Positions 2,264-10,647 of a DNA stretch of 20,000 nucleotides are shown here, piece after piece. The notes under the pieces are model-generated. The model saw only the letters and a list, made by a program, of their open reading frames with translations, did not search any database and had not been told where the DNA came from. How positions within the stretch are numbered: the stretch's first letter is position 1; each line of letters starts with the position of its first letter. The DNA comes from Neophaeotheca triangularis (taxonomy: Eukaryota). The translations under genes were made by a program, and so were the position numbers. The DNA lies in the NCBI GenBank assembly GCA_054600435.1, contig BAAIJX010000021.1, positions 365,124-385,123 of the forward strand. The letters run 5' to 3'.

Positions 2264-2450
2264 CAGAAGCAGCCGTTGGTGGGGCTTGGTGCCTGCGAGT
2301 GCCTGCTCTTTTAAGTGCACTGGGTTGGTCTCAGGTAGGTACTGTATTAAGTATCAAGGCGGGTACTAACCGACTTCACCCTTCCTTCAATACATACTGT
2401 GCCCATTCGACTTCGACTACACGCTTCGCAAGACAGCCAAGAGACGCACA

Positions 2451-4404
2451 ATGGCCGAATACTCCAAGTTGAAGGTGGCTGATTTGAAACAGCTTCTCGT
2501 CAAGCGTGGTGTTGAGGCCGACGGGACGAGAAAGCAGCAAATGATCGATGCCCTGATCTCTGATGACAACGATGCTGGTATCGACACCAATGCAGATGCG
2601 CAAGACAGCAACAGCGGTAGACCCGGAAAGAAGAGAGCTGCTTCTTCTGCCTTTGACATCCCCGACTCCAAGCAACCCAAACTCGAAAGCAACAGCGTAG
2701 CCCAGTACGTCAACTCTTCGGCCCGTGTCCCGGTCGACGAGAATTGCCATCTCGGCGGGTACCAAGTCTACATTGACCCGTCGAACATAGTGTGGGACGC
2801 GGCACTCAATCAGACCAACGCATCCAACAACAACAACAAGTTCTACCGCATCCAAGTCCTGCACAAAGGCAACGACTTTCGGACCTGGACTCGCTGGGGC
2901 AGGGTTGCTGAGAATGGCCAATCGGCCACTCTGGGCAACGGCAAGCTTGACGATGCATTGAAGAACTTTGAAGACAAGTTCAAGTCCAAGACCGGCCTCA
3001 AATGGGCTGACAGGGGATCGGATCCAAAGTCAGGGAAGTACGTGTTCGTGGAGAAGAATTGTGAGTGAAGTCTTCCAGCCTACCTGACCCAACTGTAGGC
3101 TGATTCTCACATAAAAGATGACGATGACGATGACGAGCCTCAAGCAACTGCCGGCGCTGGTGCCCGTCCCGGATGGAAGGCTCCAAAATGCAGTCTGGAA
3201 CCAGAGGTCAAGAGCCTGATGGAACTCATTTTCAACCAAAAGTACTTCGCTGCGGCCATGGTCGACCTCAACTACGACGCAGCCAAGCTGCCACTAGGAA
3301 AACTCAGCAAAGCCACCATCACCCGGGGCTTCCAAGCTTTGAAAGATCTTTCTGCCATTCTTGACGACCCTTCCCTCGTAGCCACCAGTTACGGCATGCC
3401 GGTTGGCGACGCTATCGAGGACCTGTCAAACTTGTACTACTCGCTCATACCCCACGCGTTCGGGCGCAACCGACCTCCGGTCATCCAGTATTCCGAGCAG
3501 CTCAAGGGCGAGGTGGATCTGCTGGAGAGCCTGAGCGATCTCAAAGCCGCAGACGACATCATCAAAGCCGACAAAGGCGACGTCGAAGAGGTCCATCCAC
3601 TGGACCACCGCTTCAAAGGTTTGGGCATGCGTGAGATGACGCCAGTCTCCCCGCTCAGCGACGAGTTCTCCGAGCTCAGCAATTACCTCACGAAGACTTG
3701 CGGCTCGACCCATAGCGTCAACTACCAAGTGCAGGACATCTTCCGTATCGAGCGGGAGGGTGAGGTCGATCGCTTCCAGAAGAGTGGGTTCGCTGAGATC
3801 AAGAGCGACAGGCGTCTGTTGTGGCACGGTTCTCGAGCAACCAATTACGGTGGTATACTTGGACAGGGGCTTCGCATCGCTCCACCTGAGGCTCCCGTGT
3901 CTGGCTACATGTTTGGCAAGGTAAGCAATGGCCCACGTAGCGGCTGCTTCTTTGATGCTAACAGACCCGCAGGGCATCTACCTCGCTGATATGAGCTCCA
4001 AGAGTGCCAACTACTGCTGCTCCTACGCCTCGGGCGGCACAGCACTGCTTCTCCTTTGCGAAGCTGAGCTCGGCGCGCCAATGCAGCAGCTGTTGCACGC
4101 AGACCCGGGCGCAGGCGAGGAAGCCAAGAAGAAGGGCTTGTACTCAACTTGGGGACAAGGTGAGGTCGGGCCACAGGGTTGGAAGGACGCAGGCGCGGTT
4201 CATCCGTCATTGGCGGGTGTGCAGATGGTAAACTCCTTCGCTACCTTTACACTCGTTTTGATCAATGCTAAACTTCCCTTACAGCCAGACACGACCAAGC
4301 CACCCTGCGACACGGAGGTAGATGCGTATCTCCAGTACAATGAGTACATCTGCTACGACGTCGCTCAGGTTCGCCTTCGCTACCTGCTGCGTGTGAAGAT
4401 GTGA
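2451..4404 (+). CDS. PARP: Poly(ADP-ribose) polymerase (SAP + WGR + PARP regulatory + catalytic domains), about 595 aa, 4 exons
   Basis: Exons 2451-3060, 3118-3920, 3973-4227, 4285-4404 (introns GTGAGT..AAG, GTAAGC..CAG, GTAAAC..CAG) join in frame. WGR domain: NNNKFYRIQVL...TWTRWGRV. Regulatory domain: LPLGKLSK, YYSLIPHAFGR. Catalytic motifs: RLLWHGSR, GYMFGK|GIYLADMSSKSANY, LQYNEYICYDVAQVRLRYL, giving an intact H-Y-E triad. Confidence 0.96.
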
Positions 4405-4871: not shown

Positions 4872-4996
4872 ACTAGTTAGTACGATCAAAGTCGCTGCTA
4901 ACGTCAAATGTACTTTAGTGGCGCCGACTTTAACCTTCCGACTACTGCCTCCTACCTTTCTTCTTCACTTCTTCACTTCTAAACCTCCTTCCCGGC

Positions 4997-6502
4997 ATGA
5001 TTAGGCTACCGCCTGTACTTCGACCTCGATGGACGATTAGATACCTACTTTGCTCGGCTTTGGCACTGTACTTTGCCTACTGCACCCTGTTCGGAATGCG
5101 CTACTTCAGCAGCGACTTGCCACCTTACACTGGCGAATACGATGTCGGTGTTGTCGATATCGAAGCTCCCTGCGAGCCAAGGCAGATCGGCAAAGGCGTC
5201 TTGAAGGAATCGGGAGAGCCAGCCCTACAGCTTGAGACTGTCCTCTTTTCGCTGTATTATCCTTCGGTTGAAGGAGCTCGGTCGGACCAGGCACACCACA
5301 CGTGGATCCCGAAACCCGTCGGCTTGCATGGAGAAGGGTACGCCAGGTTCATTCACGCAAACAACTGGTTCACCAATAGCGTCTTTACTTTCGGACTGTG
5401 GGCTTTGGCGGGTGGCAATGCCATCCCGGCCAAAGTCGATGTTCCTATACACGGCACCGCAAGGCCTTCTCATGAATCTCGTGGCCTAGCAGAGCAGCCT
5501 GATGACGATTATGGCCTGCCCGCGTTTCCCGTCATCGTCTTCTCACATGGCATGGCTTCTAGCAGAACCAGCTACACACAGTGGTGCGGCGAGCTTGCGT
5601 CTCGTGGATTTGTCGTAGCTGCAATTGAGCACAGAGACGGGAGTGGACCGGGCTCAATCATGATGAAATCGGACGGTACCGTCAAGAACATATACCACGT
5701 GAGCCCAGACGATGTGGATCCTGCGCCAGAGGTGTCGGCCTTCAAGCAGATGCAGCTCGACATGCGTCAGGCCGAGGTTGAAGAGACGGTGCGAGTCTTG
5801 CGATCTATCAATGCAGGAGACGGTGCGGCGATCTTTGAGTCGAGCCCTCGCAAGGAGGGCCGGGATCTACAGGACTGGACGAATCGCCTTAATATGGATC
5901 ACGTTGTGGTTGCCGGCCACTCTTACGGCGCGACATTGGCGCTGCAGGCCTTGAAGGGCTCACCATCAGACGAGCGTCCCTTTAAAGGCGGGATCATTCT
6001 CGACCCAGGAAAGCAATCCGGCCCACTGAACCACGACATCGACGTGCCAGTGGCTATAGTGCACTCAGAGTCTTGGTCCAGCAAACACTCCATCTTCCAA
6101 GGCCGCGCGCACTTCGAGGTGGTCAAGGAGCTCACAGAAGGTGTTCTAGAACGCGTCAAGTACGCATGGTTCGTGACCTCGAAAGGCACCTCGCATCCTT
6201 CGGTCACCGACGCACCTCTGATTGAGCCATTCCTACTATCATGGACGACTGGAGCCTCGATCGACGTCAAAGACGGGATCTCGCAGTACGTCAAGATCGC
6301 GCAAGAGTTCATGCAGTACCTGGACGACGGACACAGAAGAGGCATCTTGGCCGAGGAGGTCACGCATCCGGAGTACAATAAGCAGGAGAGGGAGGACGTG
6401 CCCAAGTCAATCTCCAAGTTCTGGCAGATTCACGTTGCGCCTACTACATTTTGCCCTTACCCGGGACTGTGTGGGGTGGAGAAGGAAGAGGACAAGAAAT
6501 GA
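4997..6502 (+). CDS. Platelet-activating factor acetylhydrolase (PAF-AH/Lp-PLA2) family lipase, 501 aa, N-terminal membrane anchor
   Basis: Single ORF with LPPYTGEYDVG, LYYP, FPVIVFSHGMASSRTSYTQWCGELASRGFVVAAIEHRDGS, nucleophile elbow GHSYG, catalytic Asp in IILDP and His in TSHPSVTD. Hydrophobic stretch YLLCSALALYFAYCTLFG near the N-terminus. Confidence 0.9.
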   Translation: MIRLPPVLRPRWTIRYLLCSALALYFAYCTLFGMRYFSSDLPPYTGEYDVGVVDIEAPCEPRQIGKGVLKESGEPALQLETVLFSLYYPSVEGARSDQAHHTWIPKPVGLHGEGYARFIHANNWFTNSVFTFGLWALAGGNAIPAKVDVPIHGTARPSHESRGLAEQPDDDYGLPAFPVIVFSHGMASSRTSYTQWCGELASRGFVVAAIEHRDGSGPGSIMMKSDGTVKNIYHVSPDDVDPAPEVSAFKQMQLDMRQAEVEETVRVLRSINAGDGAAIFESSPRKEGRDLQDWTNRLNMDHVVVAGHSYGATLALQALKGSPSDERPFKGGIILDPGKQSGPLNHDIDVPVAIVHSESWSSKHSIFQGRAHFEVVKELTEGVLERVKYAWFVTSKGTSHPSVTDAPLIEPFLLSWTTGASIDVKDGISQYVKIAQEFMQYLDDGHRRGILAEEVTHPEYNKQEREDVPKSISKFWQIHVAPTTFCPYPGLCGVEKEEDKK

Positions 6503-7321: not shown

Positions 7322-8497
7322 ATGACGGGCAACGACGCTTCCTTGCCCGGGCGTCTGGGAGATCCCAGCATGAGCCCAGCAACAGACCCTCGCGCAAACC
7401 CCAAGTGGGTCGCGGCCCTTGCTCCCTACGGATTGGATGAACTCGCACCAACATCCAAGCAAGTCCCCGACGTCGGCGCGGCGTTCGAGATGAGTGCTCT
7501 GTCCGAAGTCCTCGCCGTACAAAACGCCGCTTTCGGGGGCTTGTACGAAAGCCTGCCGAACGACCTCCCCGACGAAGACGACGAGCCCGAAATCAGCCGG
7601 GAAGAAATCAAAATCCCCGGCGTCGACGGCAACGAAATCATCCTGCACGTCTTCAGGCCCAAAGCGGCATCCGGGCCTCTGCCTTGCGTGCTCTACATCC
7701 ACGGAGGCGGTAACCTTTCCCCCCCCCCGCCATCGCACTCAACCATCCAACCAGACTAACACCAAAACCCCCCAGGCATGACCCTCCTCGACACAACCAA
7801 CAAAGTCCACATGCGCTGGACCAAAAACTTCGCCGCGGCGGGCCTAATCGGCATCGCCGTCGATTTCCGCAACGCCTGGACACCGCACGGCTACAACCAC
7901 TACCCCCACGGCCTCAACGACTGCTGCACCGCGGTGCGGCACCTGCACGCCCACGCCCGAGACCTCGGCATCAGCAAAATCGTCATCCAAGGCGAAAGCG
8001 GCGGCGCGAACCTCTCGCTAGCCACGGCGCTCAAGGCCAGGCGCGAAAACTGGAGCTCCCACATCGCCGGCGTCTACGCGAGCGTGCCCTTCATCAGCGG
8101 CGGCTACAACGTCTGGGACGCCGGGCGCAAACGCGCCGAATTGCCTAGCCTGCTCGAGAATGACGGCTACGTGCTGAATGTGCGGAACATGGCCGCGTGC
8201 GTGGAGGCGTACACGCCGCGGAGGGAGGAGCGGGAGGATGCGCTGGCGTGGCCGTATTTTGCGACTTTGGAGGATTTGAAGGGTCTGCCGCCCCATGTCG
8301 TTGCTGTGGATGAGTTGGATCCTTTAAGGGATGAGGGCGTCGCTTATTATCGGAAACTTGTCGCTGCTGGGGTGGAGGCTACCGGGCAGGTGAACTTGGG
8401 CGTTCCGCATGGTTCGAGTTTGATTTTTCGCAAAGCTATGCCTGAAGTGCATTTGAAGGCTGTTAGGGAGATTGTGGCGTTTGCGAAGAGTCTTTGA
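7322..8497 (+). CDS. HSL-family (alpha/beta hydrolase fold-3) esterase, brefeldin A esterase-like, 369 aa, 2 exons
   Basis: Exons 7322-7709 and 7776-8497. Intron 7710-7775 (GTAACC...ACTAAC...CAG); splicing restores the oxyanion motif HGGGM. Catalytic GESGG, ELDPLRDEG and VPHG motifs present. Confidence 0.93.
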
Positions 8498-8778: not shown

Positions 8779-10647
8779 TCAAACGTAATGCGCCTTGTTC
8801 GCGCTCCCCTCGCTCTGCTGCACCTCGACGCTGTTCTTCTCGACAGTCTCGTCAAATACATCGACAGTAGTCTTATGAAACTTTCTAGCGCTGATCTTGC
8901 GCTCGAAGAGAACATCGAGCTCGGCGAAAGTGCGGCCTTTGGGCTCCGGGATGCGGAAATAGCAGTAGATGAGACAGCAAAAGGCTAGACCTGCCCAGAA
9001 GAAACCGGCGCTGGAAGGTGTAAGTTTCTCGTTCTTTTCATGATGGGGACGATAAGAGATGGTTGGACTTACAAGTTACCCCAGTTCCATGCAGTTGGGT
9101 TGAGCATGTAGGGAGTGACGACAGCAGTGATGATACCGACAACGTTGTAAAGGTTGCGGCCCAGGACGACAGTCTTGACTTGGAGCCGTCTCGACGACAT
9201 CTCGGCGACGAGCGAGTAAGCGACAGTACCGACAGTGAGTTGGTAGACCAGGGCCCAGCCAATCATCATGCTGCCGGTAGCGAGAGCCGATTCTGTACGC
9301 TCGCTCTCCGGTGTAAGACCAAGGAAGCCCATGACGAAGAGCATGACGCAGAGACCAGCAAGACCGTACATGTAAAGTGTTCGGCGGCCGATACCGAAGC
9401 TCATTAGTGCCCAAGCTCCGAGCACACCGACCATATTGATCGAGTATTGGCCTAATGCAAAGTCGTAAGAGGTTTCGGTCGGTAGGCCAGCCTGTTGAAG
9501 GAAATACGTGCTGTAGTTGGAGAAACTGTTGCCGGAAAGATTCTGAATCGCCCACACCATGCACACAATTTCCGTCCTTCTCCGGTCTGTACCCTTGAAG
9601 CAGTCCAGGTACGAGGAGCCAGAGGTGATCTTCTCCTCGAGCTGGGTAGTGTGTTGCATCATAGAAATGGTCTCATCGGCGTTAAAGTTGGTGTCTCGGT
9701 TGAGACTGGTTAGTCGGAGGAGTGACTTCTTTGCCTGCTCGACCTTGCGCTTGCGGATGAGCCACCAAGGCGACTCGGGTGCGAGATAGATTCCAATGAT
9801 GAGCGGTACTGGCCACATCCATTGCAGGGCGAAGGGGATTCTGTAGGCCCACTCGCTTGTTCCTCGAGGCAACATGGCTCGGATGACCCCAATACCAATT
9901 AATTGACCCATTCCCCAGCAAGCATTGATATATGTCGTCAGGTAACCACGGAGTGCGACGGGGCAGACCTCGGAGGCATAGCTGATTGTCAAGGTTTGGA
10001 AGATACCCCATGGAATGCCAGCTATGATTTCGGCGACGAGAAGTTGCTCTACAGTTTCTGCGGTGAAAAAGACGGCGGTGATGGCGATGATTAATGTCAA
10101 GCTGACCATGAGAACGTTGCGATATCCGAACTTCTCAGAAGCCCAACCGTTGATGAAGAGACCGATTATTTCACCGACTGAATGGAAGTGTCAATAGAGA
10201 CTCCTGACCCTGTGGTCTTGTGAAATTGTCGACTTACCCATGACACCGTTGCTGAGCCCAGCTTGCCATGCTGCAGTAAGCTCGTATGGATTCTCAGGAT
10301 CGCCTGTGGGTTCACCAAACTGCCGTTGGAAGGCTGGGAAGCCATAGAAGCTGCGCCGAATATCAGTATGATGCGTCAGCCTGCTGAAGAGGAGCTTCCA
10401 CATACTTGTTGAGCAACGAAACATCGTAACCCTCCATGATAATACAGGTGCTGATCAGGAACGACCACCCGACCGCCTTTGGGTAGAGCTTGATACCCTG
10501 CAGCAAGGTCATATTCTGCTCTTTCTCGGTTGCAGCTCGTGCGTTTGCGACCAGTTGCCTATTGATCTCCGCTTCGCTCAACTTGTCGACATCGGGAAGG
10601 GTTACGGGGTCCGAAGAGGTACCCGCTTGTGGCTTTTCGTCGGCCAT
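8779..10647 (-). CDS. MFS sugar porter, maltose/general alpha-glucoside:H+ symporter (Mal31/Agt1/MalP-like), 563 aa, 4 exons
   Basis: Exons 10647-10406, 10350-10238, 10177-9073, 9010-8779, with GTATGT/GTAAGT/GTAAGT donors and CAG acceptors, all in frame. Family motifs: EQNMTLLQGIKLYPKAVGWS, IMEGYD, YASEVCPVALRGYLTTY, APESPWWL, SYLDCFKGTDRRRTEI, MLNPTAWNWG, PEPKGRTFAELDVLF. Start context GCCACCATGG. Confidence 0.95.

Follow-up and report, generated by a model that had tools for sequence, protein, structure and literature searches.

Est25, a metagenomic bacterial esterase, is selective for ketoprofen ester. The family to which it belongs, i.e., that of the hormone-sensitive lipases (HSL), or bacterial lipolytic family IV, is defined by HGGG, GxSxG and DPxxD motifs together with a His (definitions as given in PMC4916508). 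This source gives Bacillus subtilis as the origin of brefeldin A esterase (BFAE; PDB 1JKM) and describes the cap domain of Est25 (PDB 4J7A) as horseshoe-shaped. The window analyzed here, i.e., the whole 20,000-nt stretch of Neophaeotheca triangularis DNA under study, contains a gene for a protein related to these enzymes (Table 1). It is probably a functional spliced gene of this black yeast (Dothideomycetes, Neophaeothecales), coding for an intracellular carboxylesterase of the BFAE subfamily with an actinobacterial-related origin.

The translated spliced coding sequence (1110 nt, 369 amino acids) is letter-for-letter equal to MBLNU230_g2933t1, a hypothetical protein of N. triangularis. Since removal of the stretch between the two exons restores the reading frame and yields exactly this annotated protein, it is accepted as an intron, and since the unspliced frame runs into a stop, formation of the full protein needs splicing. 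The intron has GTAACC as donor and CAG as acceptor, and interrupts the final glycine of the H127-G-G-G130 motif. Exon 1 codes for the N-terminal cap region plus those strands that run up to this oxyanion motif, and exon 2 for the α/β-hydrolase core with GESGG, ELDPLRDEG and His341; the columns of HGGG, GESGG, Asp311 and His341 are invariant across 16 aligned fungal and bacterial sequences. A hydrophobic signal-like stretch was not found when the N-terminus of the protein sequence was read. The locus is a real, intron-containing fungal gene encoding a predicted serine esterase; the earlier note, made from the DNA letters alone, had described a spliced 369-residue esterase with an intact triad and a single intron inside HGGG, and this description is borne out by the sequence and by the identity with the annotated protein.

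Table 1 Features of the esterase gene (positions counted from the first letter of the window)
Feature	Positions	Strand	Description
Start codon ATG	7322-7324		Earliest ATG downstream of an in-frame stop (sequence reading)
Exon 1	7322..7709	+	388 nt; Met1 to base 1 of the Gly130 codon (sequence reading)
His127	7700-7702		In HGGG
Intron, spliceosomal	7710..7775	+	66 nt; phase 1; within the Gly130 codon (sequence reading)
Branch site	7754-7760		GACTAAC; fungal-type
Stop on unspliced read-through	7757-7759		
Exon 2	7776..8497	+	722 nt including TGA; final 2 bases of the Gly130 codon to Leu369
Ser204	7997-7999		Nucleophile, in GESGG
Asp311	8318-8320		In ELDPLRDEG
His341	8408-8410		In PHG

The whole protein matches the Pfam model Abhydrolase_3 (PF07859) with 123.4 bits and exon 2 alone with 111.3 bits (cut-off 25 in both cases). 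All hallmarks of family IV are present, i.e., HGGG (H127-G130), GxSxG as G202-E-S204-G-G, D311 in ELDPLRD, and H341, and the predicted protein thereby belongs to the HSL family/bacterial lipolytic family IV. The five listed NCBIfam HSL models (LipP1, GESAG_HSLs, GTSAG_HSLs, chloramphenicol hydrolase and acetyl esterase) all remained below their cut-offs, the top-scoring one being LipP1 (125.9 bits, cut-off 350), and the protein atlas offered generic Abhydrolase_3 clusters only, from bacteria and Ascomycota. The AlphaFold2 model (pLDDT 92.9, pTM 0.93) has a predicted α/β-hydrolase fold with a helical cap; its comparison with the PDB by Foldseek yielded at least 500 matches at E ≤ 0.001, and the top listed ones are HSL-family esterases.

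BFAE is the top match among solved structures (374.5 bits, E 5.3e-111), with query residues 9-367 aligned to residues 4-355 of the 361-residue chain. Exon 1 alone matches residues 4-118 of 1JKM (E 2e-23) and exon 2 alone scores 267.5 bits (E 8.7e-79), while superposition of the model on 1JKM gave TM scores of 0.93/0.95, an rmsd of 1.5 Å and 49 % identity over 360 columns. With the whole protein as query, BFAE, 6Z68 (310.5 bits) and 4J7A (304.1 bits) stand apart from the next group (at most 181.7 bits); the similarity to BFAE is full-length, includes the N-terminal region of about 120 residues and lies above that to other family IV enzymes. Within the family, the predicted protein is placed in the subfamily of BFAE, Est25 and the metagenomic esterase 6Z68/6Z69. 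It had been claimed from the DNA letters that the protein tracks BFAE beyond generic HSL motifs. This holds, as the N-terminal cap region aligns and exon 2 scores only 71 bits against heroin esterase and 57-59 bits against the HSL esterases of Rhizomucor miehei, far below its score with BFAE also in the proposed check against ordinary fungal HSL esterases; all nine stretches named as shared are present in the alignment to 1JKM. The predicted protein is no ordinary fungal HSL esterase.

The range of this esterase in fungi was drawn from three lists of the best 120 matches and 20 cluster look-ups. Among the best 120 rows of the fungal-profile search, 34 of the 35 organism-named rows are fungal (33 Dothideomycetidae, as judged by genus, and one Chaetothyriales), and no other fungal class occurs among the organism-named rows of that list. 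The remaining row, labelled Quercus suber, nests among fungi and is the sole non-fungal eukaryote named in the match lists. Many Dothideomycetidae carry the gene, with several paralogues per genome. Further fungal lineages are Periconia, Coniosporium, Cladophialophora, Escovopsis and a second Pseudocercospora type, and the groups outside the Dothideomycetidae clade (Pleosporales, Chaetothyriales, Coniosporium and Hypocreales) are placed elsewhere in the trees. The fungal range is wider than one clade; the fungi named among the matches listed all belong to the Pezizomycotina (Dothideomycetes, one Chaetothyriales, one Hypocreales) and represent at least three classes. Of ten truncated gene calls of about 239 amino acids, starting at the Met after HGGG, seven have a fungal row as nearest neighbour and three a bacterial one. 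Considered as a mark of a shared intron, such short calls are therefore not specific and carry little weight.

In bacteria, relatives are present in at least 482 species genomes (of 553 pattern candidates) and in at least six phyla (Actinomycetota, Chloroflexota, Pseudomonadota, Myxococcota, Acidobacteriota and Binatota); the loci were retrieved from genome contigs with an alignment as query, a single-protein query having retrieved none. Occurrence in Actinomycetota is rare and patchy, with 4 of 301 evenly sampled genomes positive at E ≤ 1e-70, the centre genome counted. Fungal and actinobacterial sequences share 50-57 % identity, and the bacterial protein nearest to the window protein is about 55 % identical. 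Metagenome loci gave an unbroken tblastn match in 77 of 80 cases; two of the others bear an intron, encode Cladosporium-like proteins and have this intron 5 nt from the site in the window gene, and one shows an unexplained frame change. A Pfam scan of 114 flanking ORFs at 37 bacterial loci, leaving out those 34 of the 148 ORFs that overlap the esterase gene, did not find a conserved partner. TetR-type regulators adjoin the gene in five loci (L001, L002, L056, L005 and L032). Genes for SDR, enoyl-CoA hydratase and SMP-30/gluconolactonase-like proteins each lie near a few bacterial loci.

In the proposed catalytic cycle, the usual one for this fold, Ser204 of GESGG, with His341 and Asp311 as activating residues, would attack the carbonyl of the ester, the oxyanion would be stabilised by the backbone amides of HGGG, and the N-terminal helical cap would shape the substrate pocket. 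Rather than a triacylglycerol, the substrate is expected to be a small or medium-sized ester or lactone derived from xenobiotics or secondary metabolites. Brefeldin A is produced by several ascomycetes, among them some Dothideomycetes. In line with the earlier note, one may ask for a dedicated macrolactone hydrolase which opens fungal polyketide lactones such as brefeldin A and guards against toxins of competitors or of the fungus itself. The catalytic machinery is intact, and the several paralogues kept across Dothideomycetidae suggest a selected function, but at 49 % identity substrate specificity is unpredictable. BFAE is the sole subfamily member with a named natural-product substrate as well as the top solved match, whereas the other solved members (Est25, 6Z68/6Z69) were deposited simply as metagenomic esterases. 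Moreover, BFAE scores 434.9 and 433.8 bits with actinobacterial members, to which it is thus closer than to the window protein (374.5 bits); likeness to BFAE therefore reflects membership in the subfamily and no special link to brefeldin A. Neither the window, which as noted earlier is free of polyketide or other biosynthetic genes or clusters, nor the ORFs flanking the bacterial loci, which include no conserved lactone-pathway neighbour, speak for this function. The name "Brefeldin A esterase" of two fungal relatives in public databases appears to result from automatic name transfer, a supporting assay not having been found, and searches of the freely accessible literature found no characterised fungal member, no enzymatic evidence for any fungal member (brefeldin A hydrolysis included) and no report of the gene transfer discussed below. 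A dedicated role in macrolactone opening is therefore regarded as unlikely.

In the main tree (IQ-TREE, 74 rows, LG+C20 PMSF), the window protein is found within a single clade of 21 Dothideomycetidae rows (support 100/99), which in turn lies inside a 49-row clade (100/99) together with 22 labelled bacteria, mostly soil Actinomycetota. Outside of the latter branch Acidimicrobiia, Pseudomonadota, Myxococcota and the distant representatives, which are long-branched and unlabelled and served for rooting. A similar picture emerged from FastTree analyses of 193 and 148 rows and from a quick IQ-TREE analysis of 85 rows (support values 100 and 95, both starred); in both FastTree trees the fungal clade is the sister of the actinobacterial clade and not nested within it. 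Two Acidimicrobiales MAGs branch next to the fungal clade as its closest bacterial sister, with weak support (86/89).

These trees are best read as reflecting a bacterial origin and a later gain of the intron. An alternative without any transfer would be an ancient gene of eukaryotes or fungi that was passed on vertically and lost in most lineages, the closeness to Actinomycetota then being due to slow evolution or mis-rooting. Outgroups on long branches and the presence of fungal members in three or more Pezizomycotina classes would fit such a history, and the full-mixture AU test, in which all 47 bacterial rows of the 85-row set were kept together, did not reject bacterial monophyly (delta lnL 49.95, p = 0.102). 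Rejection was obtained with the PMSF AU test, in which uniting the 37 labelled bacteria against 25 fungal rows and five distant representatives cost 108.0 lnL (p-AU 2e-7); this test may be anti-conservative, since its site profiles were fitted on the guide tree. Vertical descent is also at odds with the identity level between fungal and actinobacterial proteins, with the well-supported joint clade of both, outside of which other bacterial phyla branch, and with match lists naming no non-fungal eukaryote except for the oak-labelled protein. Furthermore, the fungi formed one group in 0 of 200 bootstrap trees, and forcing together the 24 rows then labelled fungal gave a p-AU of 0.041, a marginal and post hoc value, as this grouping was picked after the tree and left out one fungal row. 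On balance, purely vertical inheritance is unlikely.

A transfer in the reverse direction, from fungi to soil Actinomycetota, or repeated exchange both ways would agree with the sister position of the two clades in the FastTree analyses and with the patchy occurrence of the gene in Actinomycetota. However, all labelled deeper branches beyond the fungal-plus-actinobacterial clade are bacterial, the subfamily spans many bacterial phyla, and the environmental loci are nearly all unbroken, the two with an intron being Cladosporium-like; such a history is thus considered very improbable.

The gene sits on a 385-kb contig and is flanked on both sides by eukaryotic genes, the neighbours (PARP, PAF-AH-like hydrolase, MFS sugar transporter, SDE2 and GCN5L1) being housekeeping genes. 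It resides in the eukaryotic genome and does not stem from contamination, because it carries a spliceosomal intron and has eukaryotic neighbours on either side. Its GC3 of 0.749 is the highest of the nine coding stretches in the window (others 0.57-0.65) and is shifted in the same direction as that of bacterial relatives (0.72-0.98), which is weak evidence for bacterial origin. The somewhat elevated GC3 might point to contamination by a bacterial contig or to an acquisition made very recently by this strain only. This reading is rejected because of the intron and of the genes on both sides, and is likewise disfavoured by the distance to the nearest bacterial protein, by an exon-2-length gene call in another assembly (72 % identical, starting at the same Met) and by the position of the protein among dozens of fungal proteins in one clade.

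For the favoured bacterium-to-fungus transfer, direction and age are inferred: the gene most likely came long ago from soil bacteria. The donor would have been a bacterium related to soil Actinomycetota, and the recipient a fungus ancestral to Neophaeothecales, Mycosphaerellales and Cladosporiales, all orders of the Dothideomycetidae; after its entry, the gene would have gained the intron at the HGGG site and then have been duplicated into several paralogues. The transfer from bacteria to fungi with intron gain that the earlier note had proposed is hence favoured by the trees, but it would be old and common to many Dothideomycetidae, and of the results that bear on the phylogenetic check suggested there, the branch supports favour nesting and the PMSF test rejects bacterial monophyly, which the full-mixture test does not.

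The locus would offer a clear example of an enzyme of bacterial type that settled in fungi, gained an intron afterwards and was later duplicated, and it marks out a fungal esterase clade which is apparently uncharacterised so far. The esterase family, the transfer of metabolic enzymes from bacteria to fungi and the two fungal "Brefeldin A esterase" labels were already known, and the surprise for specialists is modest because of this familiarity. If macrolactones were opened, the enzyme would bear on the tolerance of rock-, salt- and leaf-dwelling fungi towards antifungal metabolites and on biocatalyst use. One may speculate, with little confidence, that BFAE-type esterases passed at least twice from soil Actinomycetota into fungi (Dothideomycetes with the black yeasts, Chaetothyriales, Pleosporales and Hypocreales), which keep them in multiple copies as openers of lactones or esters to disarm polyketide macrolactones of fungal or bacterial rivals, brefeldin-like ones included; the family would then represent a shared inter-kingdom tool of chemical defence and not a housekeeping esterase.

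Compared with known systems, RmEstA and RmEstB of R. miehei (4WY5 and 4WY8) share the Abhydrolase_3 fold, the catalytic triad and HGGG with the window protein, but differ in their low identity (22-25 %) and in the low exon 2 scores given above. Est22 (5HC0) and EH3 (6SXP) are alike in fold and motifs (176-182 bits, 32-36 % identity), but belong to another family IV subfamily; Est22 aligns only from residue 100 on, and EH3 from residue 17 with a weakly matching cap region (E 0.0067 with exon 1 alone). Est25 (4J7A; mutants 5IQ0, 5IQ2 and 5IQ3) and 6Z68/6Z69 match over the full length (300-310 bits, TM 0.90-0.92, 43-45 % identity), but are bacterial enzymes of metagenomic origin whose deposits call them general esterases. 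BFAE is bacterial, lacks the intron, differs in half of its residues and is the only one of these enzymes for which activity with brefeldin A is named, yet it agrees with the window protein in the HGGG, GESGG and DPLRDEG motifs, in the positions of Ser, Asp and His, and in the N-terminal cap region.

The 369-residue esterase encoded at 7322-8497 scores 123.4 bits with Pfam Abhydrolase_3 (cut-off 25) and passes none of the NCBIfam models. Its top match among all solved structures is the bacterial brefeldin A esterase (BFAE, PDB 1JKM; E 5.3e-111, 374.5 bits, query 9-367 on chain residues 4-355 of 361), followed by 6Z68/6Z69 (310.5 bits) and Est25 (4J7A) with its mutants (about 300-304 bits), with far lower scores for EH3 and Est22 (about 176-182 bits). 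Exon 1 contains no Pfam domain, yet its match to the 1JKM N-terminal cap reaches E 2e-23. An AlphaFold2 model (42 homologues; pLDDT 92.9, pTM 0.93) superimposes on 1JKM with TM 0.93/0.95, an rmsd of 1.5 A and 49% identity, whereas the Rhizomucor miehei enzymes, characterised HSL esterases from a fungus, share only 22-25% identity with the window esterase in the structure comparison. Based on these scores and their drop, the cap match, the model fit and the low identity to the Rhizomucor enzymes, the protein is, as judged from sequence and predicted structure, a member of the BFAE-like subfamily (1JKM, Est25, 6Z68/6Z69 and relatives) of family IV/HSL esterases and not an ordinary fungal HSL esterase. 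The likeness to BFAE past generic HSL motifs, claimed in the earlier note, indeed extends from end to end, and all shared motifs listed there are present in the query-1JKM alignment. Since no signal-like hydrophobic stretch was read at the N-terminus of the translation, we take the esterase to be intracellular.

Joining both exons by their coordinates yields a 1110-nt coding sequence, the product of which is 100% identical to an annotated protein located on a contig of 385 kb (P0003, 'hypothetical protein MBLNU230_g2933t1 [Neophaeotheca triangularis]'). The phase-1 intron lies within the codon of Gly130, the final residue of the HGGG oxyanion motif, and the unspliced reading frame hits a stop at 7757-7759. 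GESGG (Ser204), ELDPLRDEG (Asp311) and His341 are intact, and the columns of these catalytic residues do not vary among 16 aligned homologues from fungi and bacteria. The predicted spliced esterase with its triad and single HGGG intron was thereby confirmed.

Features of the esterase gene and its surroundings
Feature	Position	Strand	Remarks
F-box-like ORF	window		weak match, under Pfam cut-off
SAP-WGR-PARP gene	2370-3989	+	two adjoining open frames with SAP, WGR, PARP regulatory and PARP catalytic domains
PAF-acetylhydrolase-like hydrolase	4934-6502	+	522-codon open frame; PAF-acetylhydrolase isoform II domain, 133 bits
Esterase exon 1	7322-7709	+	ATG at 7322; 129 residues plus one base; read from window
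Esterase intron	7710-7775	+	66 nt; GTAACC donor, GACTAAC branch site 7754-7760, CAG acceptor; read from window
Esterase exon 2	7776-8497	+	two bases plus 239 residues, TGA at end; read from window
MFS sugar transporter	9069-10190	minus
GNAT, SDE2, M20 peptidase, GCN5L1, short-chain dehydrogenase			further window genes

The surrounding DNA is ordinary fungal chromosome. The two PARP frames presumably represent one poly(ADP-ribose) polymerase gene with an intron near 3068-3099, and the PAF-acetylhydrolase-like frame 0.8 kb upstream of the esterase encodes a second, unrelated alpha/beta hydrolase. As already stated from the sequence alone and borne out by domain content, the 20,000 nt hold neither a polyketide synthase gene nor any other biosynthetic gene. 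GC content ranges from 0.50 to 0.61 across the window without a GC island; GC3 is highest in the esterase (0.749 vs 0.57-0.65; nine coding stretches of the window), which hints weakly at its origin.

Of 3001 candidates from a word-indexed search with exon 2, 1641 proteins matched at E<=1e-10. The best 120 matches comprise 15 fungal-named proteins, all from Dothideomycetes (56-63% identity; own protein 100%), seven actinobacterial-named ones (54-59%), one labelled Quercus suber and 97 without organism name. With a profile of the fungal clade, 35 of the best 120 rows are organism-named, i.e., 34 fungi and the oak-labelled protein. We take 33 of these fungi to be Mycosphaerellales, Cladosporiales or Neophaeothecales, as checked for Neophaeotheca, Acrodontium and Cryoendolithus only; the remaining one is Cladophialophora bantiana (Chaetothyriales). 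The oak-labelled protein (P0007, 'carboxylesterase nlhh [Quercus suber]') branches within the Dothideomycete clade, close to Meristemomyces and Zymoseptoria, and is probably fungal DNA within the cork-oak protein set. Look-up of 20 cluster representatives added Escovopsis weberi (Hypocreales, 44% identity to the query), a divergent Pseudocercospora fuligena protein and Teratosphaeria nubilosa.

When used as query, the Cladophialophora protein (P0341) matches Coniosporium apollinis proteins (P0342/P0343) at 80% identity. Next come unnamed proteins at 60-79%, of which those at about 60% sit among bacterial rows in a 193-row FastTree; a Periconia macrospinosa protein named 'Brefeldin A esterase' matches at 56%. 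Cladophialophora bantiana belongs to the Eurotiomycetes and Coniosporium apollinis to the Dothideomycetes, and their next organism-named relatives are bacterial (about 53-57%). The closeness across classes suggests fungus-to-fungus transfer or two uptakes from near-alike donors.

The BFAE-like subfamily is sporadic in bacteria, rare even in Actinomycetota, and behaves as an accessory gene there too. At least 482 of 553 candidate stretches of a species-genome collection encode a relative, the best 80 loci spanning Actinomycetota, Chloroflexota (best locus 55% identity), Pseudomonadota, Myxococcota, Acidobacteriota and Binatota. An E<=1e-70 match was found in 4 of 301 evenly drawn genomes of Actinomycetota, the phylum of Geodermatophilus telluris, itself counted. 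The BFAE-like gene of a Ktedonobacteraceae MAG (L001:293-5064) has another Abhydrolase_3 esterase, a TetR regulator and a serine resolvase as neighbours, a setting that may be mobile or accessory; a TetR neighbour also occurs at loci L002 and L056. The 646-aa protein P0123 has an N-terminal Abhydrolase_1 domain fused to a BFAE-like part sharing 70% identity with the protein of L006, a locus from a MAG labelled Pseudomonadota.

The 193-row FastTree (every listed hit and bacterial locus >=320 aa, plus six distant representatives) unites all named fungal rows in one clade (support 97), sister to a 104-row actinobacterial clade (98; joint support 100), with Acidimicrobiia, Pseudomonadota and Myxococcota clades outside this pair. 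A quick IQ-TREE of 85 picked rows (33 fungal-labelled, 46 of the 80 bacterial loci, one Streptomyces protein, 5 outgroups) contains a 32-row clade (99) of 31 Dothideomycetidae and the oak-labelled protein within a 58-row clade with 25 bacteria (100), Cladophialophora being placed away from the other fungal rows. In a careful IQ-TREE (74 rows, LG+C20 approximated by PMSF; ultrafast bootstrap/SH-aLRT), 21 Dothideomycetidae rows form one clade (100/99), the sister of which is two Acidimicrobiales MAG proteins with a support of just 86/89. Therein, the other 20 rows have the Neophaeotheca protein as their sister (94/95), in keeping with vertical descent, given that Neophaeothecales is an order of its own. 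Periconia, Cladophialophora and Coniosporium constitute a second fungal clade (100/98); both, along with 22 labelled bacteria, lie inside a 49-row clade (100/99), and none of the 200 bootstrap trees shows the fungi as monophyletic. In a 148-row FastTree with all full-length representatives, a 65-row clade (95) holds these fungi together with a third group, Escovopsis plus the divergent Pseudocercospora protein. In the main fungal clade, Zasmidium, Cercospora, Septoria, Fulvia, Cladosporium and Meristemomyces each possess 2-3 copies spread over sub-clades; therefore, the duplications would have come after acquisition.

Forcing the 47 bacterial rows in the 85-row set into one group cost 49.95 lnL under the full mixture and was not rejected (p-AU 0.102). 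Uniting the 24 rows of the 74-row tree then labelled fungal, a grouping picked post hoc, cost 29.0 lnL with a marginal p-AU of 0.041; protein P0160, counted as 'other' therein, was later identified as fungal by cluster look-up. The better-posed test, keeping 37 labelled bacteria apart from 25 fungal rows and five distant representatives and leaving other unlabelled rows free, cost 108.0 lnL (p-AU 2e-7) under PMSF, the guide-tree profiles of which may favour the free tree. Thus, nesting of the fungal proteins within bacteria appears well supported by branch supports and the approximate test, and is not settled by the strictest one.

The tblastn match is single and unbroken in 77 of 80 metagenome loci. 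In two (L119, L132) it is split at residues 131/134, where the DNA (L119:1840-1990, L132:1840-1975) reads HGGGM|GTGAGT...AG|V, i.e., a phase-0 intron past the Met codon following HGGG and 5 nt downstream of the window's intron (7700-7780 compared). Since both are closest to a Cladosporium paralogue (64-65% identity), at least two fungal sub-clades have introns at or beside the HGGG site. The offset may reflect sliding of a single old intron or two independent gains. In the third locus (L094:228-1306), the reading frame shifts at query residues 85-90, where an intron would not fit; either a frameshift or a sequencing error of the metagenome contig accounts for it. Gene calls of about 239 aa starting at the post-HGGG Met are an unreliable intron sign: of 10 such calls examined, 7 have a fungal row as their closest relative, but 3 a bacterial one. 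From the trees, bacterial origin followed by intron gain is the best-supported history. The transfer into fungi proposed in the earlier note is thus the likeliest reading, with the amendment that it would be an old event common to the Dothideomycetidae, with separate fungal groups elsewhere.

The family IV catalytic apparatus is intact and the predicted model has the BFAE-like fold; the window protein is predicted to be an active serine esterase, in which Ser204 would attack the ester, His341 and Asp311 would relay the proton and the HGGG amides would hold the oxyanion. Neither bacterial gene neighbourhoods (no consistent hint) nor the window (no pathway clue) point to a substrate, and no described fungal member was found in the searched literature on brefeldin A esterase and relatives. 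Among the papers listed for brefeldin A esterase and in excerpts of PMC4916508 and PMC8664445, BFAE appears solely as structural reference or CAZy CE10 label. Hydrolysis of brefeldin A or other macrolactones may be hypothesized from the name of one relative with 49% identity; the suggested detoxification role is unsupported. The name 'Brefeldin A esterase' is already borne by two fungal homologues in public databases, and BFAE is the sole subfamily member with a named natural-product substrate. Since a Streptomyces (434.9 bits) and a Pseudonocardia homologue (433.8 bits) outscore the window esterase against 1JKM, BFAE groups with the actinobacterial members and has no special tie to the Neophaeotheca enzyme.
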